Below are positions 2,380 through 44,842 of a DNA stretch of 64,000 nucleotides, one piece after another. The position numbers and the translations under genes were made by a program. The notes beneath the pieces were generated by a model, which had not been told where the DNA came from, searched no databases, and was given only the letters and a program-made list of their open reading frames with translations. Position 1 is the first letter of the stretch. Each line of letters starts with the position of its first letter. Source of the DNA: an uncultured Mycoplasmatota bacterium (GTDB lineage: Bacteria > Bacillota_I > Bacilli_A > RF39 > UBA660); NCBI GenBank assembly GCA_900548725.1, contig URLV01000005.1:25-64024 (forward strand), given 5' to 3'.

Positions 2380-3065
2380 ATATGCTTTTTATTGTATTTA
2401 TTTAATACTTCAAAATTATTTAAATTTATTTTATATTTTTTAGATAATAAATTTATGGTATGTAATTGTTCCTCTGTAATATCTAATTGATTAATTGTTA
2501 AATCAAGAATCCTATTACAATCTTTTCTTCCATAAATTACACCTTTTTCTTTTATTAAAAAATCTATTATTTTGAACATATAATATTTTTCATGTTTTAA
2601 TCTAAGAAAACTTTTACACAAGTATTTGTCTTGTATTAAATAATTATTTAATAGTGTAGTTGCATTTATTAAATGTCTTTCAACATATCTATTATCAATT
2701 ATTGTGCCATCTTCTAATATAAAAAAACCAGTTTCTATTTTATTTGTTTCGTTTAATCCTATAAAATCATCAGTTGAATAAGTAAATATATGAGAAAGAT
2801 TATTTGATTCTGTTATAATATATTTATTATCTTTGCATTCAAATGTAGGATTTTCTAAATAGAATGGATTAATAACTGTATTTTTTTGTTCTCCAAATAT
2901 ATAATCAAAATACGGAGAAAAATATGTATATTTTTTTTGAAATTCTTTAAAATTTATTCTATTTGTTTCTTCATTTGTTAATTCTAAAGTTAGTTCTTTA
3001 CAAAATTTTAATAAATCATAATATTCTATTTCATATTCTTTATTGTTTATTTTTATTTTTATCAT
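2355..3065 (-). CDS. Hypothetical cytoplasmic protein (no recognisable motif), last gene of the operon
   Basis: 236-aa ORF with an ATGA start/stop overlap with the upstream HAD-GtrA gene (translational coupling). No hydrophobic segments. Confidence 0.6.
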   Translation of the reverse strand: MIKIKINNKEYEIEYYDLLKFCKELTLELTNEETNRINFKEFQKKYTYFSPYFDYIFGEQKNTVINPFYLENPTFECKDNKYIITESNNLSHIFTYSTDDFIGLNETNKIETGFFILEDGTIIDNRYVERHLINATTLLNNYLIQDKYLCKSFLRLKHEKYYMFKIIDFLIKEKGVIYGRKDCNRILDLTINQLDITEEQLHTINLLSKKYKINLNNFEVLNKYNKKHIKNRIYND

Positions 3066-4084
3066 TTTTTAAATACCAATAATTTACTTATTATATAGTT
3101 TCCAACAATAACTAATATTTGAGAAACTAACTTTCCTATTTTATCATTTAAATGTAATAATGTTACAATTATAAACATACATAACATGTCTAGAACTAAA
3201 GTTAATATTCTAGAAGAAACAAATGAAGTGGCTTCTTTTACAATATTTTTTTCTTTACTTTTAAAAACGAAAACTCTATTAGTTACATACGCAAACGCAA
3301 CAGATATTATCCAAGAAATAATGTTTGCAATTTGAAGTTCTTTAGCATTTTCTGGATTTAAAAAAGTTGTAACACATGCATAATATGTTATTAAACTAAT
3401 TAAAGTTGTTAAAAATCCAACAATTAAGTAATTCCAGATTTCTTCATTTTTATGATATATATTCCATCCAAAATCCCAAAATCTTTTAAAAATATTTGGC
3501 TTTTTATTTTTAAAATCTTCATAATTATATATATTATTCTTTTTAATTACATAAGATTTTTTTGCTAAATCAAGCAATGGTTTATCTGCGTTTATATCAT
3601 CTGAATACATTGTTTCTATTATACATTCAGGATATTCTTTGTTAATAAGTTTTACTTTTTCAACATTATGACAATTTATTCCGTTATATTTTCCTGTTTT
3701 CTTATCAACTGGAGATGCAAATAATTTCTTTATTTTATATTTTTTTGCAATTGGTTCAAGCAAAAAATATGGACTTGCTGATGCAATTATATCATTTTTA
3801 TGTGTTTTTTTATTTTTATAAAAATCTTTTATATTTTTTTCATGAGTCTTCCAAAACAATTCTAATTCATTATCAATATTTTCAAATTTGTTAAATATTT
3901 CAAAAAAACATTCCTTCATAGTTTCTTTAGTTATTAATTTTAATTTATATTTTATAAAATATATACCCATTTTTGGATAATGAGATAATATACTTTTTTT
4001 TCTTTTTGTTAAATATTTTATAAAATCTATAGTTGAATCACCGTCATATATAGTTCCATCAAAATCGTATATCTCTAATTTCAT
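3062..4084 (-). CDS. HAD-superfamily phosphatase fused to a GtrA-family membrane domain
   Basis: HAD motif I DFDGTIYDGDS at the N-terminus. The C-terminal ~130 aa carry four hydrophobic helices and NRVFVFKS, typical of GtrA-like proteins. SD AAGGAA lies 7 nt upstream. Confidence 0.7.
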   Translation of the reverse strand: MKLEIYDFDGTIYDGDSTIDFIKYLTKRKKSILSHYPKMGIYFIKYKLKLITKETMKECFFEIFNKFENIDNELELFWKTHEKNIKDFYKNKKTHKNDIIASASPYFLLEPIAKKYKIKKLFASPVDKKTGKYNGINCHNVEKVKLINKEYPECIIETMYSDDINADKPLLDLAKKSYVIKKNNIYNYEDFKNKKPNIFKRFWDFGWNIYHKNEEIWNYLIVGFLTTLISLITYYACVTTFLNPENAKELQIANIISWIISVAFAYVTNRVFVFKSKEKNIVKEATSFVSSRILTLVLDMLCMFIIVTLLHLNDKIGKLVSQILVIVGNYIISKLLVFKK

Positions 4085-4149
4085 AATATCATTCCTTATG
4101 TATTTAGTATACCATATAATCTTTAATTTTTTATAAAATAAAAAGTATA

Positions 4150-5682
4150 TTAGAAATTTACAACTAATATACCATCTATTATTTTTATTGAATCTTTTTC
4201 TGGATAAGATTTCATATTGTTATATTCTTTACTACCTTTTATCTTATCACGTTCTTCATCTGTTGCTCTATTTAGATATACGCCAAATTCATTATTTATC
4301 ATTGTAAATATTTTTTTATCATTATTATAAGTGTATAAATCTGCATATCCGATATATTTCCCACCCCATAATGATTGGTCAAATGTTATATTATCATTTG
4401 TGTTTGGTAATGTATTTAACTCTTTATAAAAATTGCTATTTGATTCTCCTTTGAATATAATTGGTATTCCATAATAATATCCTTCTGTACTTTCTATTTT
4501 ATTTAATAAACGATTATTAAAGTTTTCTGTATATTTATAATATGTTTCTTGTTTGAAATAATATTTATTTGTTGTTATAAAATTCATAATACCTATCATT
4601 ATTATTAAAATTGTTGTTATTATATTTAAGTATTTTGGTTTTGTTTTATCTATTAAAAGTATTATTAGCAAATATAATGATGAGAAACTATATATTTGTA
4701 GTGATGTTAAGTCTGCTTTATATGCCATAAAATCTACTATATTAAATGTTAATGGTATTAAAATAATTAATATTGTAAATATTATTATGTTTGTTTTGTT
4801 TTTATATATATTTTCTTTTTTAATTTTATTTATTAGTAAAATAAATGTTAACATTATCGTTAAAATTCTTATTATACTTTCGAATATTGAAACTCTAAAG
4901 TATGATTTTCCTATAAAGTATCCTATAAAATGTTTATATGTTCTAAATATTAATTTTGGCCATTCACTTATTGGAGGAATTCCCATACTATTTGCACCTT
5001 TATAGTTTGATAAAGATGTTTTGTTTATTAATAAAAGTATTTTCAATATAATAAAGTATAGTATGATTCCAATAATTCCCATTATAAATAATTTTATAAT
5101 ATCTTTAAATATATCTTTTTCTTTTTTCTTATCAAGTATTTCTTTTATTATAAAAATTATTATAAGAGATACTGATACTGCGATGTATGATTGGTAATTA
5201 CCAAGTGATAATGCGATGCATAAACTTCCTGGTATGAAACCATATTTCCATTTTGTACTTAGCCATACTGCAAGTACAGCTAATAGTAAGGAAGTCATAT
5301 AGATTTCTACCATAAATAAATAACTAAATGATAGTGCTAATGAAGGAAATGTTGATATTATTAATGAAACTAAAATCATATTCCTCTTATTTTTTATTTT
5401 GAAAATATCACATATTAATAAACTAATTAATGCTAGTATTATTATAACTAATACAAAATTAATTGGTGCTGACATTAATGATGTTGTAAATAATGTTCCG
5501 TTATTCCATCTTCCACTTGTTAGTGCAAAATCTTTAAATACTAAATATGATAAGTCATCTTCGTTTGCTAGTCTTCTAGTAAAAAAATAAAAATGTGTTA
5601 AAAATGTAAATATCATACTGCTATAAATAGAATATTTATACTTGTCATATAGTTCTTGTAATTTTTTGATTATTTTTTTCAT
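4150..5682 (-). CDS. Polytopic membrane protein, GtrII/Glucos_trans_II-like extracytoplasmic glycosyltransferase candidate
   Basis: 510 aa. About a dozen hydrophobic segments are followed by a soluble C-terminal domain. NEDDLSY...SGRWNNG near the N-terminus resembles the GtrII-type family (from memory). Confidence 0.5.
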   Translation of the reverse strand: MKKIIKKLQELYDKYKYSIYSSMIFTFLTHFYFFTRRLANEDDLSYLVFKDFALTSGRWNNGTLFTTSLMSAPINFVLVIIILALISLLICDIFKIKNKRNMILVSLIISTFPSLALSFSYLFMVEIYMTSLLLAVLAVWLSTKWKYGFIPGSLCIALSLGNYQSYIAVSVSLIIIFIIKEILDKKKEKDIFKDIIKLFIMGIIGIILYFIILKILLLINKTSLSNYKGANSMGIPPISEWPKLIFRTYKHFIGYFIGKSYFRVSIFESIIRILTIMLTFILLINKIKKENIYKNKTNIIIFTILIILIPLTFNIVDFMAYKADLTSLQIYSFSSLYLLIILLIDKTKPKYLNIITTILIIMIGIMNFITTNKYYFKQETYYKYTENFNNRLLNKIESTEGYYYGIPIIFKGESNSNFYKELNTLPNTNDNITFDQSLWGGKYIGYADLYTYNNDKKIFTMINNEFGVYLNRATDEERDKIKGSKEYNNMKSYPEKDSIKIIDGILVVNF

Positions 5683-31964: not shown

Positions 31965-33425
31965 CTACCTCCAATTATAATCTTCTTTTAATACGATTTT
32001 ATCTTTATTGTATATTTTTCTTAATGGTACATTTCTCCAATCATCATTATTTGTTGAAACATCAGAATAATATATAGTGAATGGAATTTTATCAAATTTT
32101 TCAAATACTATTTTTTTTTGATTTTTATCGTTTAATATTTTTATTCTTTCTTTGTATTTTTCATCATATTCTTTTATTGCTCCGCTTTTAAATTCGGAAT
32201 ATATTTTATATGATGTGATAGTTTCTTTATTATAATAAACGTTTATACTTATTATTATGATAAGTATTAAATATATAATTTTTTTATTTGATTTTAATAT
32301 ATTTATAACTTTTTTATATTTTTTGTTTTTTATTAATTTATTATTTATAGATTTAATAACATAATATAACACAAAAATCATACAAACAAAATATTCATAA
32401 TAAATAATATTAGTTAATCTTCCTTCACCTAGATTTGATGATGCATAAAGAGTTGGTGTTAATGTTGCAGAAAAAATACAGTATGTTAGTAATGTTACTA
32501 AGATAGGATATTTGTATTTAAAATTTGTTTTTGAAGTATTTATTAGTATTGTTGTTATCATAATTATGAAAGACATATTTAATAAACTAGTCCATTCACC
32601 AATATATTTTGCTCCATATATAAATGATGACATTATTGCTTTAATTGGTGACATTCCAGTTACCACGGCTGCTCTAACGCTATTTCCAGGTGCCATAGCA
32701 CTTATTAATAAAAATACTACAGATACTACTAATAATGGTATACATCTTTTATCTTTTTTCTTTAACAACAAATATATGTTTAATAAAACCAATAAAATAA
32801 TTTGTTGTAGCGCTAGTATAAAATTGCTACCTGCTATTAAAATTGTTATTAGAACACTTAAAGCATATTTTTTCTTTGTAAATTCACCTAATATAAATAA
32901 ATTTAATATTAAAGATATATTTACTAAGTGAAAAGTATAAAATAATGTATAATAGCTTGCTCCATTCCACCAATATAATCCTTGAACTACATTTGGCATT
33001 GTTTCTAATGTGATTATCAAAAACAATGATGTTATTAGATAAGTATATTTTTTGTTAATATGTAATAGTTTTACAACAATTGATTTGGTAAATATGTATG
33101 TTGAAAATAATAAACTTAATATTAATATGAATGACCCAACAAAATAAAATTGTTGTCCCCATATTGCTGGTTGTAATGACATAATTACAATAGCACTATA
33201 TGTTCCTTGCCAAGTCATATAAAATTCTGAAACTGTTTTACCTATTCCAGCTAATAGTTTAAATATACCACCTGTTTTTAATGAATTAAATGTGTAAATG
33301 CTATAATTATAATCATCTGCGGCAGGATGAGTAAATGTTCCTGTATATAATAGTTGGGCAACAAATATAAGAAGTATACCTGTTGCTATTACAACGTAGT
33401 AATTATCTTTTATTTTTTCTTTCAT
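31965..33425 (-). CDS. Polytopic membrane protein, GT-C-like candidate partner of the GtrB-type enzyme
   Basis: 486 aa, about 12 hydrophobic helices, HPAADDYNYS loop near the N-terminus, soluble C-terminal ~90 aa. Confidence 0.45.
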   Translation of the reverse strand: MKEKIKDNYYVVIATGILLIFVAQLLYTGTFTHPAADDYNYSIYTFNSLKTGGIFKLLAGIGKTVSEFYMTWQGTYSAIVIMSLQPAIWGQQFYFVGSFILILSLLFSTYIFTKSIVVKLLHINKKYTYLITSLFLIITLETMPNVVQGLYWWNGASYYTLFYTFHLVNISLILNLFILGEFTKKKYALSVLITILIAGSNFILALQQIILLVLLNIYLLLKKKDKRCIPLLVVSVVFLLISAMAPGNSVRAAVVTGMSPIKAIMSSFIYGAKYIGEWTSLLNMSFIIMITTILINTSKTNFKYKYPILVTLLTYCIFSATLTPTLYASSNLGEGRLTNIIYYEYFVCMIFVLYYVIKSINNKLIKNKKYKKVINILKSNKKIIYLILIIIISINVYYNKETITSYKIYSEFKSGAIKEYDEKYKERIKILNDKNQKKIVFEKFDKIPFTIYYSDVSTNNDDWRNVPLRKIYNKDKIVLKEDYNWR

Positions 33426-33446: not shown

Positions 33447-33525
33447 GAATTCTCAGTGCTTTTTACTGAATTCTCAGTGCTTTTTACTGAATTCTCAGTG
33501 TTTTTTACTGAATTCTCAGTGCTTT
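33447..33525. repeat. 21-bp tandem direct repeat, 3.75 copies
   Basis: GAATTCTCAGTGCTTTTTACT at 33447, 33468, 33489 (one G>T change) and a partial copy from 33510. Each junction forms the palindrome ACTGA-ATTC-TCAGT (33465, 33486, 33507). Confidence 0.95.
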
Positions 33526-33764: not shown

Positions 33765-34838
33765 TTATAATTGTTCAACAAAAGTATCGTATATTCTGAT
33801 GTAGCGATATGTAATTCTATTAGTACCTTCTTTTTTTTCTTTTTCAATTATATTTAATTTAACTAAACGATTTAAAATGTTATTGATGGAATTAATATGT
33901 GCTCCTAATTCTTTTGCCATTTCTATAGCAGTAAACACTATTTTCTTCATCATCAACGGATGTAATTTCAATACTAAACTACCGTTTATTTCTTTTTTGA
34001 TTGTTTCCTCATCTTCATCATACACTCTATTAATTTTTTCTATTCTACCTATATTTCTTGTGCACTCATCTATTACACATTGCAAGAAAAATCTAATAAA
34101 ACCATTGAAATTTCCATTTCTACATTCATTTAATGAATTATAGTAATTTGCTTTAAACAACACTATTATTTCAGACAAAAACAATATTGGTTCATCATCT
34201 TTCAATTTTGCAAGCTGTAGCGTAATTAAAGCTCTTCCCAATCTTCCATTTCCATCTTTGTAGGGATGTATTGATTCAAATTGTACATGTGATATTGCAA
34301 CTTTGATAAAGGCTTCTTCATCAAACATATTATTCATATATTCAATTAAATTATCTAATAGTTTTGGAACATCTTCAGGTATTGGTGGAATAAATGTTGC
34401 TCCTTCTTTGCCTAATCCTTTTAGACCAATATAATTCTGTATTGAACGTATTTCACCTGGGGATTTGTATTTCCCTCTTACACCAGATAACAATATTTTA
34501 TTCATTGAATTAATCATATTTATACTAAAATTTTTATTTTTTAAATTGTAATTAGCATATTCAAACATTTTTTTTAAATTTTTTACTTCTTGTATACTAT
34601 TATTTGGTTCTTTGTAATTAATATAGTACATATCATCTTGAGATATTTGGGTTCCTTCAATTTTAGATGATCTGATACTTTCTCCTAATATTAGAGAATC
34701 CAAAAAATACCTTTGATCAAATTTAAATATTTTTAACAAAGATTTATATTGACCATATTTATCGTTTGCTTGACCTAATAATTTTATTGTTTCTTTATCA
34801 ATTTTATAATCTATAGGTGGCTCCATTTCATAACACAC
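33765..34838 (-). CDS. Fic-family AMPylase, class II (intramolecular inhibitory helix), with C-terminal winged-helix-like domain
   Basis: Active-site HPYKDGNGRLGRAL matches HxFx(D/E)GNGRxxR. N-terminal SSKIEG matches the (S/T)xxxE(G/N) inhibitory motif. The start is uncertain (GTG 34838 or ATG 34826; no strong SD). Confidence 0.85.
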   Translation of the reverse strand: MCYEMEPPIDYKIDKETIKLLGQANDKYGQYKSLLKIFKFDQRYFLDSLILGESIRSSKIEGTQISQDDMYYINYKEPNNSIQEVKNLKKMFEYANYNLKNKNFSINMINSMNKILLSGVRGKYKSPGEIRSIQNYIGLKGLGKEGATFIPPIPEDVPKLLDNLIEYMNNMFDEEAFIKVAISHVQFESIHPYKDGNGRLGRALITLQLAKLKDDEPILFLSEIIVLFKANYYNSLNECRNGNFNGFIRFFLQCVIDECTRNIGRIEKINRVYDEDEETIKKEINGSLVLKLHPLMMKKIVFTAIEMAKELGAHINSINNILNRLVKLNIIEKEKKEGTNRITYRYIRIYDTFVEQL

Positions 34839-34849
34839 TACTTTGTTGT

Positions 34850-34858
34850 ATTATATCA
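34850..34858 (-). promoter_or_regulatory. Extended -10 promoter of fic
   Basis: Minus strand reads cgTGaTATAAT. Confidence 0.5.
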
Positions 34859-34871
34859 CGATTTAGTGTTT

Positions 34872-34987
34872 TTTACACATTAAAACGCATTTTAATGTGT
34901 AAATATTACTTTGTATGCACATTTTTTTGCAATTTAATGTGTATATTTAAGTTTTTATTCACATTTTTTTATAAATTACTGTGTATA
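34872..34987. promoter_or_regulatory. Three phased 32-bp palindromic operator-like units
   Basis: Units at 34872-34903, 34914-34945 and 34956-34987 have the form TWTNCACA-N16-TGTGTAWA. They are separated by exactly 10 bp (42-bp period). The proximal unit overlaps the -35 position of the fic promoter. Confidence 0.6.
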
Positions 34988-35002
34988 TAATTTTTTATAT
35001 TA

Positions 35003-42589: not shown

Positions 42590-42603
42590 TTATTGAGTAT
42601 AAT
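42576..42603 (+). promoter_or_regulatory. clpB sigma-A promoter
   Basis: TTGACA (42576-42581), 16 nt, TATAAT (42598-42603). Confidence 0.7.
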
Positions 42604-42628
42604 AAGTATTAGAAATGGAGGGATATTT

Positions 42629-44743
42629 ATGGAACAAAATCCTTATGAAGAAAATTTAAAAAAACCGCTTGAAAAGTATGGACGTGATATTGTTAAACTT
42701 GCTATGGATGGTAAGATTGAACCAGTAATTGGGAGAGATGATGAAATACGTAATATAACTCGTGTTTTATCTAGAAAGACTAAAAACAATCCAGTTTTAA
42801 TTGGTGAACCTGGTGTTGGTAAAACTGCAATAGTTGAAGGTCTTGCACTTAGAATTGTTAAAGGTGATGTACCTAATAGTTTAAAAAATAAACATGTATG
42901 GGAACTTGACATGGGTGCTTTAGTTGCTGGTGCTAAATACCGTGGTGAATTTGAGGAAAGATTAAAAGCTGTTTTAAAAGAAATAAAAGATAGTAACGGT
43001 GAAATAATATTATTTATAGATGAGATTCATATGATTGTTGGTGCTGGTGCATTAGAAGGTGCAATGGATGCTGGTAATATGCTTAAACCTATGCTTGCTC
43101 GTGGTGAAATTCATTGTATAGGTGCTACTACTTTAAATGAATATAGAAAATATATAGAAAAAGATGGAGCGCTAGAAAGACGTTTTCAAAAGATACAGGT
43201 TAATGAACCTACTGTATTAGATACAATCACAATACTTCGTGGATTAAAAAACAGATTTGAAGTATTCCATGGAGTAAGTATTAAAGATAAAGCTTTAGTT
43301 GCTGCTGCAACATTATCTGATAGATATATAACTAGTAGATTTTTACCTGATAAAGCAATTGATTTAGTTGATGAAGCTTGTGCTACTATAAAAGTTCAAA
43401 TGGAAAGTGTTCCTGTTGAACTTGATACTTTATCTAGAAAAATAATGCAATTAGAAGTTGAAAAACAAGCTTTAAAACATGAAAAAGATGAATTAAGTAA
43501 AAATAGAGTTATTGAGATTGATAAAAAGCTTGAAGACTTAAAAGTTAGAGAAAAACAACTTAGAAATGATTGGGAAGAAGAAAAAGTCATCAATGATAAT
43601 ATTTCTAAAAAGAAAGAAGAAATTGAACGTAAGAATTATGAATTAGAGGTAGCTGAAAATAATTATGATCTAGAAACAGCTGCTAAATTACGTCATGGAG
43701 TTATACCAGAGTTAAAACGTGAATTGGAAGAATTGAATAACAGCAATAAGCGCTCAATATTAAGTGATGTTGTTGATGACGAATCTATTGCAAAAATTAT
43801 ATCTAAATGGACTAATATTCCGGTTGCTAAACTTGTTGGCGGAGAAAAAGACAAATTAGTTCATTTATATGAAAATATGAAAAAACGTGTTAAAGGTCAA
43901 GATGAAGCTTTGGAACTTGTTAGTGAAGCTATTAAACGTGCTCGTGCTGGTATTAAAGATCCTAATCGTCCAATTGGTTCATTTATGTTCTTAGGTCCTA
44001 CTGGTGTAGGTAAAACTGAAGTAGCTAGAACTCTAGCATATGAATTATTTGATGATGAAAAGCATATGATAAGAATTGATATGAGTGAATATATGGAAAG
44101 TCACAGTGTTTCACGTTTAGTTGGAGCTCCTCCAGGATATGTTGGTTATGATGAAGGTGGACAATTAACTGAAGCAGTTAGACGTAATCCTTATAGTATA
44201 GTTTTATTTGATGAAATAGAAAAAGCTCATAAAGATGTATTTAATATATTGCTTCAAATACTTGATGACGGTCGTATAACTGATGGTCAAGGTAGAACAG
44301 TAGACTTTAAAAATACAATAATTATTATGACTAGTAATTTAGGTAGTGAATATATTTTAAATAACGATGATAATTATAAAGATAAAGTAGATGAGGCTGT
44401 TAGACATACGTTCAAACCTGAATTTATTAATAGAATTGATGAAATTATAGTCTTTAAACCACTTGATAAAGAAGTAGTTCATGAAATTCTTAACAATATT
44501 ATTAAAAATATTGAATTACGTTTAAGAGATAAACAATTAACTCTAACTTTAAGTGATAGAGCAAAAGAATTTATTATTGAAAACAGTTTTGATGTTAATT
44601 TTGGTGCTAGACCTATTAAACGTTATGTAAGTAGAAATATAGAAACTTTAATAGCAAATGCATTAATTAATGATGAGATTGTTTTTGGAAGCAATATTAA
44701 TATTGATGTTAATAATAATGGAGAATTTTATATTACAAAATAA
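42629..44743 (+). CDS. clpB: ClpB disaggregase lacking the N-terminal domain
   Basis: The protein begins about 12 residues before LEKYGRD...[32 protein letters not shown] (NBD1). It has a coiled-coil middle domain and NBD2 ([20 protein letters not shown]). Start is ATG 42629 with SD GGAGGG. Confidence 0.92.
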
Positions 44744-44780: not shown

Positions 44781-44789
44781 GAATTTAAG

Positions 44790-44842
44790 TTAGTCAATAG
44801 TATCACTTTAAATTAGTCAATAGTGTCACTTTAAATTAGTCG
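44790..44842. repeat. 23-bp tandem direct repeat, ~2.3 copies
   Basis: TTAGTCAATAGTATCACTTTAAA (44790-44812), TTAGTCAATAGTGTCACTTTAAA (44813-44835), then TTAGTCG... Confidence 0.9.

Follow-up and report, generated by a model that had tools for sequence, protein, structure and literature searches.

The 64,000-nucleotide stretch of contig URLV01000005.1 from an uncultured Mycoplasmatota bacterium (hereafter, the window) carries on its minus strand a fic gene whose promoter region contains a tandem array of three palindromic units. These units are probably operators for the product of the very gene that they precede, a Fic protein ending in a winged helix-turn-helix (wHTH) region, which would regulate its own expression negatively. 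The first-pass annotation of the window had proposed operators of a dimeric repressor of fic, with autoregulation as one possibility, and this proposal is supported by the linkage of the motif to fic, its fixed position in the promoter, its rarity, and the precedent of two characterized relatives, CccR and SoFic. The same annotation had found no known family for the regulator. Since the motif is linked to fic, and since both CccR and SoFic bind their own promoters, we assign the regulator to the Fic-wHTH (SoFic/CccR) family itself. We infer that Fic is the binder, that it binds as a dimer and that binding represses the gene; the units may in addition cooperate.

The array consists of three units, none of which is assigned to a strand. 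Unit 1, the proximal one, occupies positions 34872-34903 and has the form TTTACACA-N16-TGTGTAAA (TTTACACATTAAAATGCGTTTTAATGTGTAAA on the fic strand). Unit 2 lies 42 bp upstream of it at positions 34914-34945 and has the form TATGCACA-N16-TGTGTATA (TATACACATTAAATTGCAAAAAAATGTGCATA on the fic strand). Unit 3 is the farthest from the gene, 84 bp upstream of unit 1 at positions 34956-34987, and has the form TATTCACA-N16-TGTGTATA (TATACACAGTAATTTATAAAAAAATGTGAATA on the fic strand). All three conform to the pattern TWTNCACA-N16-TGTGTAWA, as described in the first-pass annotation, and the spacers between them are exactly 10 bp long (34904-34913 and 34946-34955), which gives the claimed period of 42 bp. 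The perfect palindrome ascribed to unit 1, TACACATTAAAA-cgca-TTTTAATGTGTA, is also present, at positions 34874-34901. The half-site centres within one unit are 22 bp apart (about two helical turns, or ~75 Å along B-DNA), so that both half-sites lie on one face of the DNA; the offsets of 42 and 84 bp correspond to four and eight helical turns, which places units 1 to 3 on the same face as well.

Chance does not account for this arrangement. The pattern CACA-N16-TGTG has three matches in the window, all of them in the array, compared to 0.28 expected, and none of 100 dinucleotide-preserving shuffles of the window contains three or more. Tandem Repeats Finder (TRF) reports a 42-bp period at positions 34887-34989 (2.5 copies, 80% matches, score 129). 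A symmetrized position weight matrix (PWM), built from 17 units of fic promoters, assigns 36.1, 35.7 and 29.3 bits to units 1, 2 and 3, respectively, and the three array sites thus score 29-36 bits, compared to less than 5 bits at every other position of the window.

The placement of the array relative to the promoter is precise. A TG-extended -10 box, TGATATAAT, is present on the minus strand at positions 34850-34858, where the first-pass annotation had located the promoter, and is unchanged in nine close relatives. The -10 hexamer begins 20 nt past the proximal TGTG, and TGTGTA therefore occupies the -35 slot, in agreement with the earlier claim that the proximal unit covers the -35 position. 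A putative inverted-repeat operator with a long spacer, TACACA-N16-TGTGTA, thus has its right half on the -35 slot of the gene's own promoter, with the centre of unit 1 near -44.5. Read as either TGTGTA or GTGTAA, the slot has only two to three of the six consensus matches; this poor -35 explains why a generic promoter scan of the window did not list the fic promoter.

The length of the upstream spacer required correction. It had been given as 164 bp, on the assumption of a GTG start at position 34838; the start codon is almost certainly the ATG at position 34826, since all homologues begin with MEPYK... at the equivalent ATG, and the spacer is therefore 176 bp. The ribosome-binding region (34836-34844, minus strand) reads AAAGTAGTG in the window and, according to the alignment, AAAGGAGTG in all close relatives, such that the window alone among them has GTAG in place of the Shine-Dalgarno GGAG. 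The N-terminus of the window Fic is also six residues shorter than in the close relatives (MEPPIDYK, compared to MEPYKAKLLPIEYK; region 34800-34844), with the open reading frame (ORF) and the catalytic motifs intact. Together, the altered Shine-Dalgarno sequence and the loss of six residues may represent early decay or down-tuning of fic in the window.

The association of the motif with fic extends well beyond the window. Homologues of the Fic protein number in the thousands; the best 120 are 79-100% identical to it, and the named ones come from uncultured 'Bacilli bacterium' genomes. Homologue loci or contigs that were compared with the window are designated by L-numbers. The proximal unit is kept in 19 distinct fic promoters from at least five unrelated neighbourhoods, at protein identities of 44-96%. 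In every promoter examined, the CACA of the proximal TACACA-N16-TGTGTA is located 68-74 bp before the fic ATG, and in most of them the -10 hexamer follows 18-21 nt past the TGTG and carries the TG extension. The exceptions are L016, L017, L020 and L029, for which the scan chose a hexamer 24-25 nt past the TGTG, without the TG extension. The leader is short, with 16-23 nt from the -10 box to the ATG. The promoters of fic orthologues, which the first-pass annotation had named as a place to look, thus all keep the motif wherever examined, at a fixed distance from both the -10 box and the ATG.

In five neighbourhoods the fic homologues are 77-96% identical. The first is the cell-wall glycosyltransferase locus of the window type (L001, L120-126); in the window itself, the genes around fic have cell-wall polysaccharide and teichoic-acid functions, among them glycosyltransferases, a sulfatase-fold LtaS-like protein and a WecA-like transferase. 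In the second (L002-7), fic follows a topoisomerase gene and precedes iPGM; in the third (L008), it follows an unknown gene of 396 aa; in the fourth (L012-15), it is divergent from a radical-SAM gene and precedes vanY; and in the fifth (L016-21), it lies between sua5 and a second, different Fic gene. The layout persists at greater distances, in L040 (69% identity) as TACACAATAAAATCAAATTTATTGTGTA followed by TGTTATAAT, and in L073 (44% identity) as TACA-N16-TGTA. BLASTN comparisons between neighbourhoods detect homology from the operator array to the fic stop codon, and on this evidence from alignment the mobile unit consists of operators, promoter and fic. The variable genomic placement of this module fits a mobile defence gene.

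Several observations concern the edges of the module. Because the fic stop codon marks the end of the homology shared by the neighbourhoods, no conserved downstream partner exists, and a small downstream antitoxin, as in EcSofic/AS1, was rejected on the same ground. The array was also considered as an integron attC-like recombination site at the 5' edge of a mobile block; this was discarded, as there are neither matching core sites nor an element at the 3' edge. A phage origin of the module was likewise set aside: a search of viral contigs with the Fic protein found no relative, and the single match of the operator motif in those contigs is assumed to be due to chance. In L008, the fic stop codon is directly succeeded by a second operator pair (4082-4155; 13 and 40 bits, 42 bp apart) and then by a shortened promoter copy, an arrangement that resembles what a tandem duplication of the module would leave behind. 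Beyond these duplicated operators lies an ORF of 121 aa on the opposite strand; neither this ORF nor a fragment-like frame downstream of fic gave a significant match in Pfam. In L016-L021 (~4635-5630), the SoFic-like gene is followed by the second Fic gene (331 aa, Fic + Fic-like_C); a WYL/HTH regulator comes next in some of the contigs and a phage-type integrase is found upstream in L021, so that the sua5 neighbourhood looks like a small island of Fic genes.

The specificity of the motif was assessed on two scales. Over ~129 kb of flanking sequence, the PWM detected no off-target site except for the duplicated pair after fic in L008. The first-pass annotation had raised the background frequency of the motif as a point to be checked, and apart from that duplicate it is otherwise absent from both the 64-kb window and these flanks. 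On a much larger scale, a search of 185,579 species, each represented by one genome, for a strict 28-bp pattern, TACACAKTAANNNNNNNNWTAMTGTGTA, yielded 18 loci. Six of these, all from Bacilli metagenome-assembled genomes (MAGs), immediately precede a fic homologue. Confirmation by tblastn was obtained for five of them; the remaining one, L024, corresponds to the L016 promoter in reverse complement, truncated by the edge of the locus. The strict pattern is present once per assembly in all six of these MAGs. The other hits comprise a motif of Saprospiraceae/Bacteroidota, terminator-like hairpins past stop codons (L027 ligA, L033 rplT) and a few singletons.

The Saprospiraceae/Bacteroidota hits (L022, L023, L026, L028, L030 and L031) share a separate palindrome, TACACATTA-N10-TAATGTGTA, which is situated, for example, upstream of a clpC-like gene (L026, L030) or beside gatA-like genes (L022, L023), with two copies in L022. 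An unrelated regulator of that phylum is its probable reader.

The fic gene of the window (33765-34826, minus strand) codes for a 353-aa class II Fic protein of the SoFic type, a predicted AMP-transferase with Fic_N and Fic domains. The catalytic motif HxFx(D/E)GNGRxxR is found as HPYKDGNGRLGR, with Y replacing F (Pfam Fic, E=1.1e-17), and the inhibitory motif (S/T)xxxE(G/N) occurs N-terminal to the Fic core as SSKIEG at residues 53-58 (Pfam Fic_N, E=1.1e-13), identical across 31 homologues. The PADLOC model of the SoFic anti-phage defence system (PDLC03963) matches residues 4-347 of the 353 with E=1.5e-86, but the NCBIfam SoFic equivalog gives only 97 bits against a cut-off of 550; the window Fic therefore belongs to the SoFic family without being an orthologue of SO_4266. 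Sequence profiles are less informative for the last 111 residues, which have only sub-threshold matches to TrmB, MarR, Crp-HTH and Lrs14.

Structure prediction identifies this C-terminal part. In an AlphaFold model built with 17 diverse sequences (predicted local distance difference test, pLDDT, 90.3; predicted template modelling score, pTM, 0.90), residues 283-342 are arranged in the order helix-helix-helix-strand-strand (helices 283-294, 300-307 and 311-323; strands 327-330 and 339-342), with a pLDDT of ~91-97, which is a canonical wHTH and bears out the winged-helix-like C-terminus suggested by the first-pass annotation. An earlier run, in which 31 near-identical homologues were aligned, had reached a pLDDT of 53, with the C-terminal domain alone confident. 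The wHTH region is encoded at positions 33801-33980 (minus strand), and its predicted recognition helix, residues 311-323 (SINNILNRLVKLN), is the presumed operator reader. In Foldseek comparisons the whole chain has template modelling (TM) scores of 0.83-0.86 to the SoFic structures 3eqx, 3zcn and 3zec, and of 0.84 to the Mycobacterium marinum Fic 7cb8. The monomer model includes a long helix at residues 11-32. By analogy with SoFic (bioRxiv 10.64898/2026.07.09.737422), EcSofic, CbFic2 (PMC10628234) and CccR (PMC9755527), for all of which dimerization has been reported, the window Fic would form a dimer through this N-terminal helix.

The proposed mechanism combines these features. A Fic dimer held together by its N-terminal helix would place each wHTH on one outer half-site, TACACA or TGTGTA, and the half-site separation of 22 bp would suit such widely separated reading heads. 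As the right half-site of unit 1 lies on the -35 slot, a dimer bound there should hinder RNA polymerase at the TG-extended -10 promoter and would hold a potentially toxic enzyme at low expression. Units 2 and 3, on the same face of the DNA, would add occupancy or permit contacts between dimers. The direction of regulation is suggested by the overlap with the -35 slot and by analogy with CccR.

The class II Fic protein CccR of Yersinia pseudotuberculosis, whose C-terminal domain is an HTH, represses its own promoter through AGATAATCAT-N26-ATGATAATCT near the -35/-10 region; binding requires both the HTH domain and dimerization, and the recognition helices are ~70 Å apart (PMC9755527). The likeness to the window lies in a dimer on a long-spacer inverted repeat over its own promoter and in self-repression, both of which are predicted for the window Fic; the toxic and regulatory activities of CccR are separable. 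The two systems differ in several respects: CccR uses one 46-nt operator (10-N26-10) with other half-sites, whereas the window has half-sites of 6-8 bp separated by N16 and repeated three times at a 42-bp period, and CccR is a type VI secretion system effector of a proteobacterium, whereas the window Fic comes from an uncultured gut member of the Bacilli and matches a SoFic defence model. The structure 7xux, which is probably CccR to judge from its title and release date, has a TM score of ~0.6 to the window Fic, compared to ~0.85 for SoFic.

SoFic of Shewanella oneidensis (SO_4266, mloA) binds the first 100 bp of its own promoter in a sequence-specific manner as a dimer, not as a monomer, and AMPylates EF-Tu (bioRxiv 10.64898/2026.07.09.737422). 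It shares with the window Fic the same full-length fold (N-terminal helix, Fic domain and wHTH), although sequence identity is only ~20%. In our own reading of Table S2 of the preprint, the SoFic promoter contains ATGTCGAT 8-mers ~40 bp apart rather than TACACA..TGTGTA. Within the 300-bp promoter, these 8-mers occur at ~-107, -68 and -28 and their complement at ~-137 and -57, and farther upstream there is a pair of GTATAGA..TCTATAC palindromes with a 40-bp offset. The SoFic promoter and the array of the window may thus have in common a spacing of about four helical turns.

The third relative, CbFic2 of Coxiella burnetii, resembles the window Fic in being a class II Fic protein with a dimerizing N-terminal helix and a C-terminal wHTH. 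It binds DNA, which switches it between AMPylation and deAMPylation (PMC10628234). It differs in that binding was observed on generic duplexes of 20-60 bp, with unspecific contributions from outside the HTH, and in that no operator or autoregulation is described (PMC10628234). By analogy with CbFic2, the array might serve as a DNA dock that holds several SoFic dimers in an inactive, deAMPylating state, from which release during phage infection would both derepress the gene and free the enzyme to AMPylate EF-Tu and stop translation; we regard this idea as a long shot. If it were true, release could occur through DNA competition, DNA damage or a phage protein, and the threshold of the defence trigger would be tuned by gaining or losing 42-bp units, whose number ranges from one to four in near-identical strains.

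The fourth relative, EcSofic, is toxic and dimeric and depends on its C-terminal domain. A broader parallel is provided by type II toxin-antitoxin operons of the phd-doc type, in which palindromic operators covering the promoter of a growth-arresting enzyme gene hold down its expression; Doc is itself a relative with the Fido fold. There the DNA binder is a separate antitoxin, whereas the window Fic carries both the inhibitory helix and the DNA-binding domain in the enzyme polypeptide.

An autoregulatory system predicts that operators and recognition helices co-vary, and this was explored in a metagenome scan of 80 SoFic-like loci (26-69% identity), ~70 of which were usable for a test of upstream repeats. 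In ~25 of the ~70 loci, compared to ~3 expected, the best spaced inverted repeat upstream of the gene beats all 20 shuffles, a number to which terminators of upstream genes may contribute. Three palindrome types accompany three types of recognition helix. ATCCTTT-N19/20-AAAGGAT is found upstream in L045, L060, L064, L100, L106 and L117, the helix being xPTVxKSLxH; CTGCAAT-N14-ATTGCAG is found upstream in L057 and L103, with STAxRLxxDF; and the TACACA-N16-TGTGTA type goes with HINSxNxxLN, according to the protein alignment. The half-site centres are 21-27 bp apart in all three types. The association was scored without regard to phylogeny. From this comparison, a long palindrome with widely spaced halves that varies together with the recognition helix may be a general feature of the SoFic-like family.

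Autorepression has to be weighed against two other ways of using the same sites. The units could be operators for a different, unlinked regulator that controls fic in all these bacteria. The Fic protein is the presumed binder, and this alternative would accommodate a small regulon, at which L027 and L039, two related Bacilli MAGs with strict-motif sites that have no fic gene beside them, could hint. We nevertheless consider it improbable: no regulator gene is conserved beside fic across the five neighbourhoods, and the moving block is exactly operators, promoter and fic, a self-contained module that is expected under autoregulation and awkward for an unlinked factor. Moreover, among distant homologues a change of operator type is matched by a change of the Fic recognition helix, and two relatives are known to bind their own promoters. 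Alternatively, the same Fic-wHTH dimer could activate the gene, replacing the poor -35 in the manner of a class II activator. The position of the operator centre and the few consensus matches in the -35 slot would suit such a role, which we doubt all the same, because a perfect TG-extended -10 needs no contact at -35, because positive feedback on a toxic enzyme would be hazardous, and because CccR, the sole relative tested in vivo, represses (deletion raises promoter activity 3.3-fold; PMC9755527).

Besides the activator-like geometry, other points tell against autorepression by Fic. The set of 185,579 species does not include the window's own genome, which leaves room for further sites or a wider regulon. 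The L027 and L039 sites indicate that the strict motif is not exclusive to fic promoters. Within the close clade, identity is 0.94 for the units and 0.86 for the spacers, a modest gap among five distinct sequences; selection on the units inside this clade was considered as an argument and, given so weak a signal, not relied upon. The CccR paper describes the arrangement of its dimer as different from that of SoFic (PMC9755527), and EcSofic's C-terminal domain was reported to control toxicity, in work that did not address DNA binding.

The two sites without fic were inspected individually. In L027, the strict site (5127-5154) lies 2 nt past the stop codon of ligA, with a T-run behind it, and so resembles a terminator; a half-site identical to that of unit 1 in the window (TTTACACATTAAAATG) is found nearby, upstream of a wecA-like gene. 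In L039, the strict site (3025-3052) lies between divergent cvpA-like and rnhC-like genes. These sites could be footprints of a lost fic module, extra members of a regulon, or coincidence.

The number and quality of the units vary among the relatives. Three good units are found in the window and in L120-122, which belong to a clade with Fic proteins 95-96% identical; in L001 and L123 a 2-nt deletion has removed the left half-site of unit 3, and L124-126 have an extra unit of 41/42 bp, for a total of four. A single unit is represented by L002. A second unit is located 42 bp upstream in most promoters; L001, L008, L034 and L120-126 have it in strong form, whereas in L012, L016-20, L029, L035 and L038 it is reduced to a degenerate TACA..TGTA. 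Among the relatives with 77-84% identity, this second unit is still exactly 42 bp upstream in most promoters. In L040 the units are spaced by 42 and 52 bp, both whole helical turns, and the middle one is shortened to CACA-N6-TGTG. Half-site identity of unit 1 in the close clade is 0.98. With a copy number of one to four and decay of the distal units among the relatives, the proximal unit is the constant element and the distal ones are auxiliary. As judged from sequence comparison, units 2 and 3 arose by 42-bp tandem duplication and are auxiliary rather than essential.

The distal units may have no function at all, unit 1 alone being used and units 2 and 3 being neutral products of duplication, whose phasing simply reflects the length of the duplicated segment. 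This is a serious alternative, if less well supported than the main reading. It accounts for the similarity of the inter-unit spacers (TRF takes the whole region as a 42-bp tandem repeat), for the variation in copy number among relatives at 95-96% identity, and for the deletions or decay to TACA..TGTA in many lineages. It accounts less well for the persistence of the second unit, intact or degenerate, at exactly 42 bp in most promoters down to 77% identity, for the whole-turn spacings of L040, which would not be expected from the repetition of one segment, and for the fact that the window keeps both half-sites in all three units. Under autorepression by Fic, the units may be used cooperatively, with the reservation that the distal ones are degenerate in many relatives and that their number varies.

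A function of the palindromes as hairpins, either as a terminator of the upstream glycosyltransferase gene or as a structure in the leader RNA, is largely refuted, and we regard it as extremely improbable. Unit 1, a perfect palindrome of 12 bp, does fold well (-11.7 kcal/mol, z -6.7), and the look-alikes in L027 and L033 occur right past a stop codon and are followed by a T-run. Units 2 and 3, however, are no more stable when folded than shuffled sequence is (z -0.2 and -0.6), although they retain the outer half-sites; since these half-sites are common to all units and only unit 1 folds, a duplex site read by a dimer is indicated rather than a hairpin. On the fic strand no unit is followed by a T-run, unit 1 being followed by an A-run, and a terminator scan found none. 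The motif is also kept where fic is divergent from its upstream neighbour (L012), and the units, being upstream of the -10 box, lie outside the fic mRNA. An Rfam scan assigned no family to the array and returned one chance-level match (E=0.54), inside the fic ORF.

Two further candidates were rejected. An opposite-strand gene, represented by a 57-aa ORF at positions 34817-34990 (plus strand), is contradicted by the 2-nt deletion of L001 and L123 and by the 41/42-bp insertion of L124-126, all of which fall inside this ORF. A CRP/FNR-type site (TGTGA-N6-TCACA, 22 bp) does not fit the spacer of 16 bp found in all strong units; the likeness is confined to the letters TGTG/CACA.

The window contains two other tandem repeats. 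At positions 33447-33525, a 21-bp repeat, GCACTGAGAATTCAGTAAAAA (3.8 copies, 96% matches), ends at the ribosome-binding site of a gene for a 486-aa membrane protein (31965-33425, minus strand). Its unit contains a small palindrome, ACTGA-GAAT-TCAGT, and the core CTGAGAATTC is present in four copies in the window, three in L120 and L121, and two in L122, whereas no exact copy of it occurs in L001 or L123-126. The repeat may represent another operator array, or else a promoter or leader element of variable length. At positions 44784-44841, a 23-bp repeat, TTTAAATTAGTCAATAGTATCAC (2.5 copies, 94% matches), lies just past a clpB-like gene (42593-44743, plus strand).

The kind of system proposed here for the window is already known. 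In the literature, self-repression by a Fic protein's own winged-helix tail has been demonstrated in vivo for CccR only, and promoter binding for one SoFic; what is new is the tandem operator array of variable copy number, a feature that neither CccR nor SoFic is described as having. The analysis provides a candidate operator, AATACACAkTAA-N8-TTAmTGTGTATT, together with its exact placement in the promoter, for a large group of SoFic-like genes from uncultured Bacilli of the human and animal gut. The motif can be used to annotate fic promoters, and it would explain why fic travels together with its operators and promoter as one compact module. The natural variants with one to four phased units offer material for relating operator number to the level of expression. 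More generally, if the units are indeed operators for Fic, the finding would bear on how single-gene SoFic defence proteins stay harmless and then switch on.

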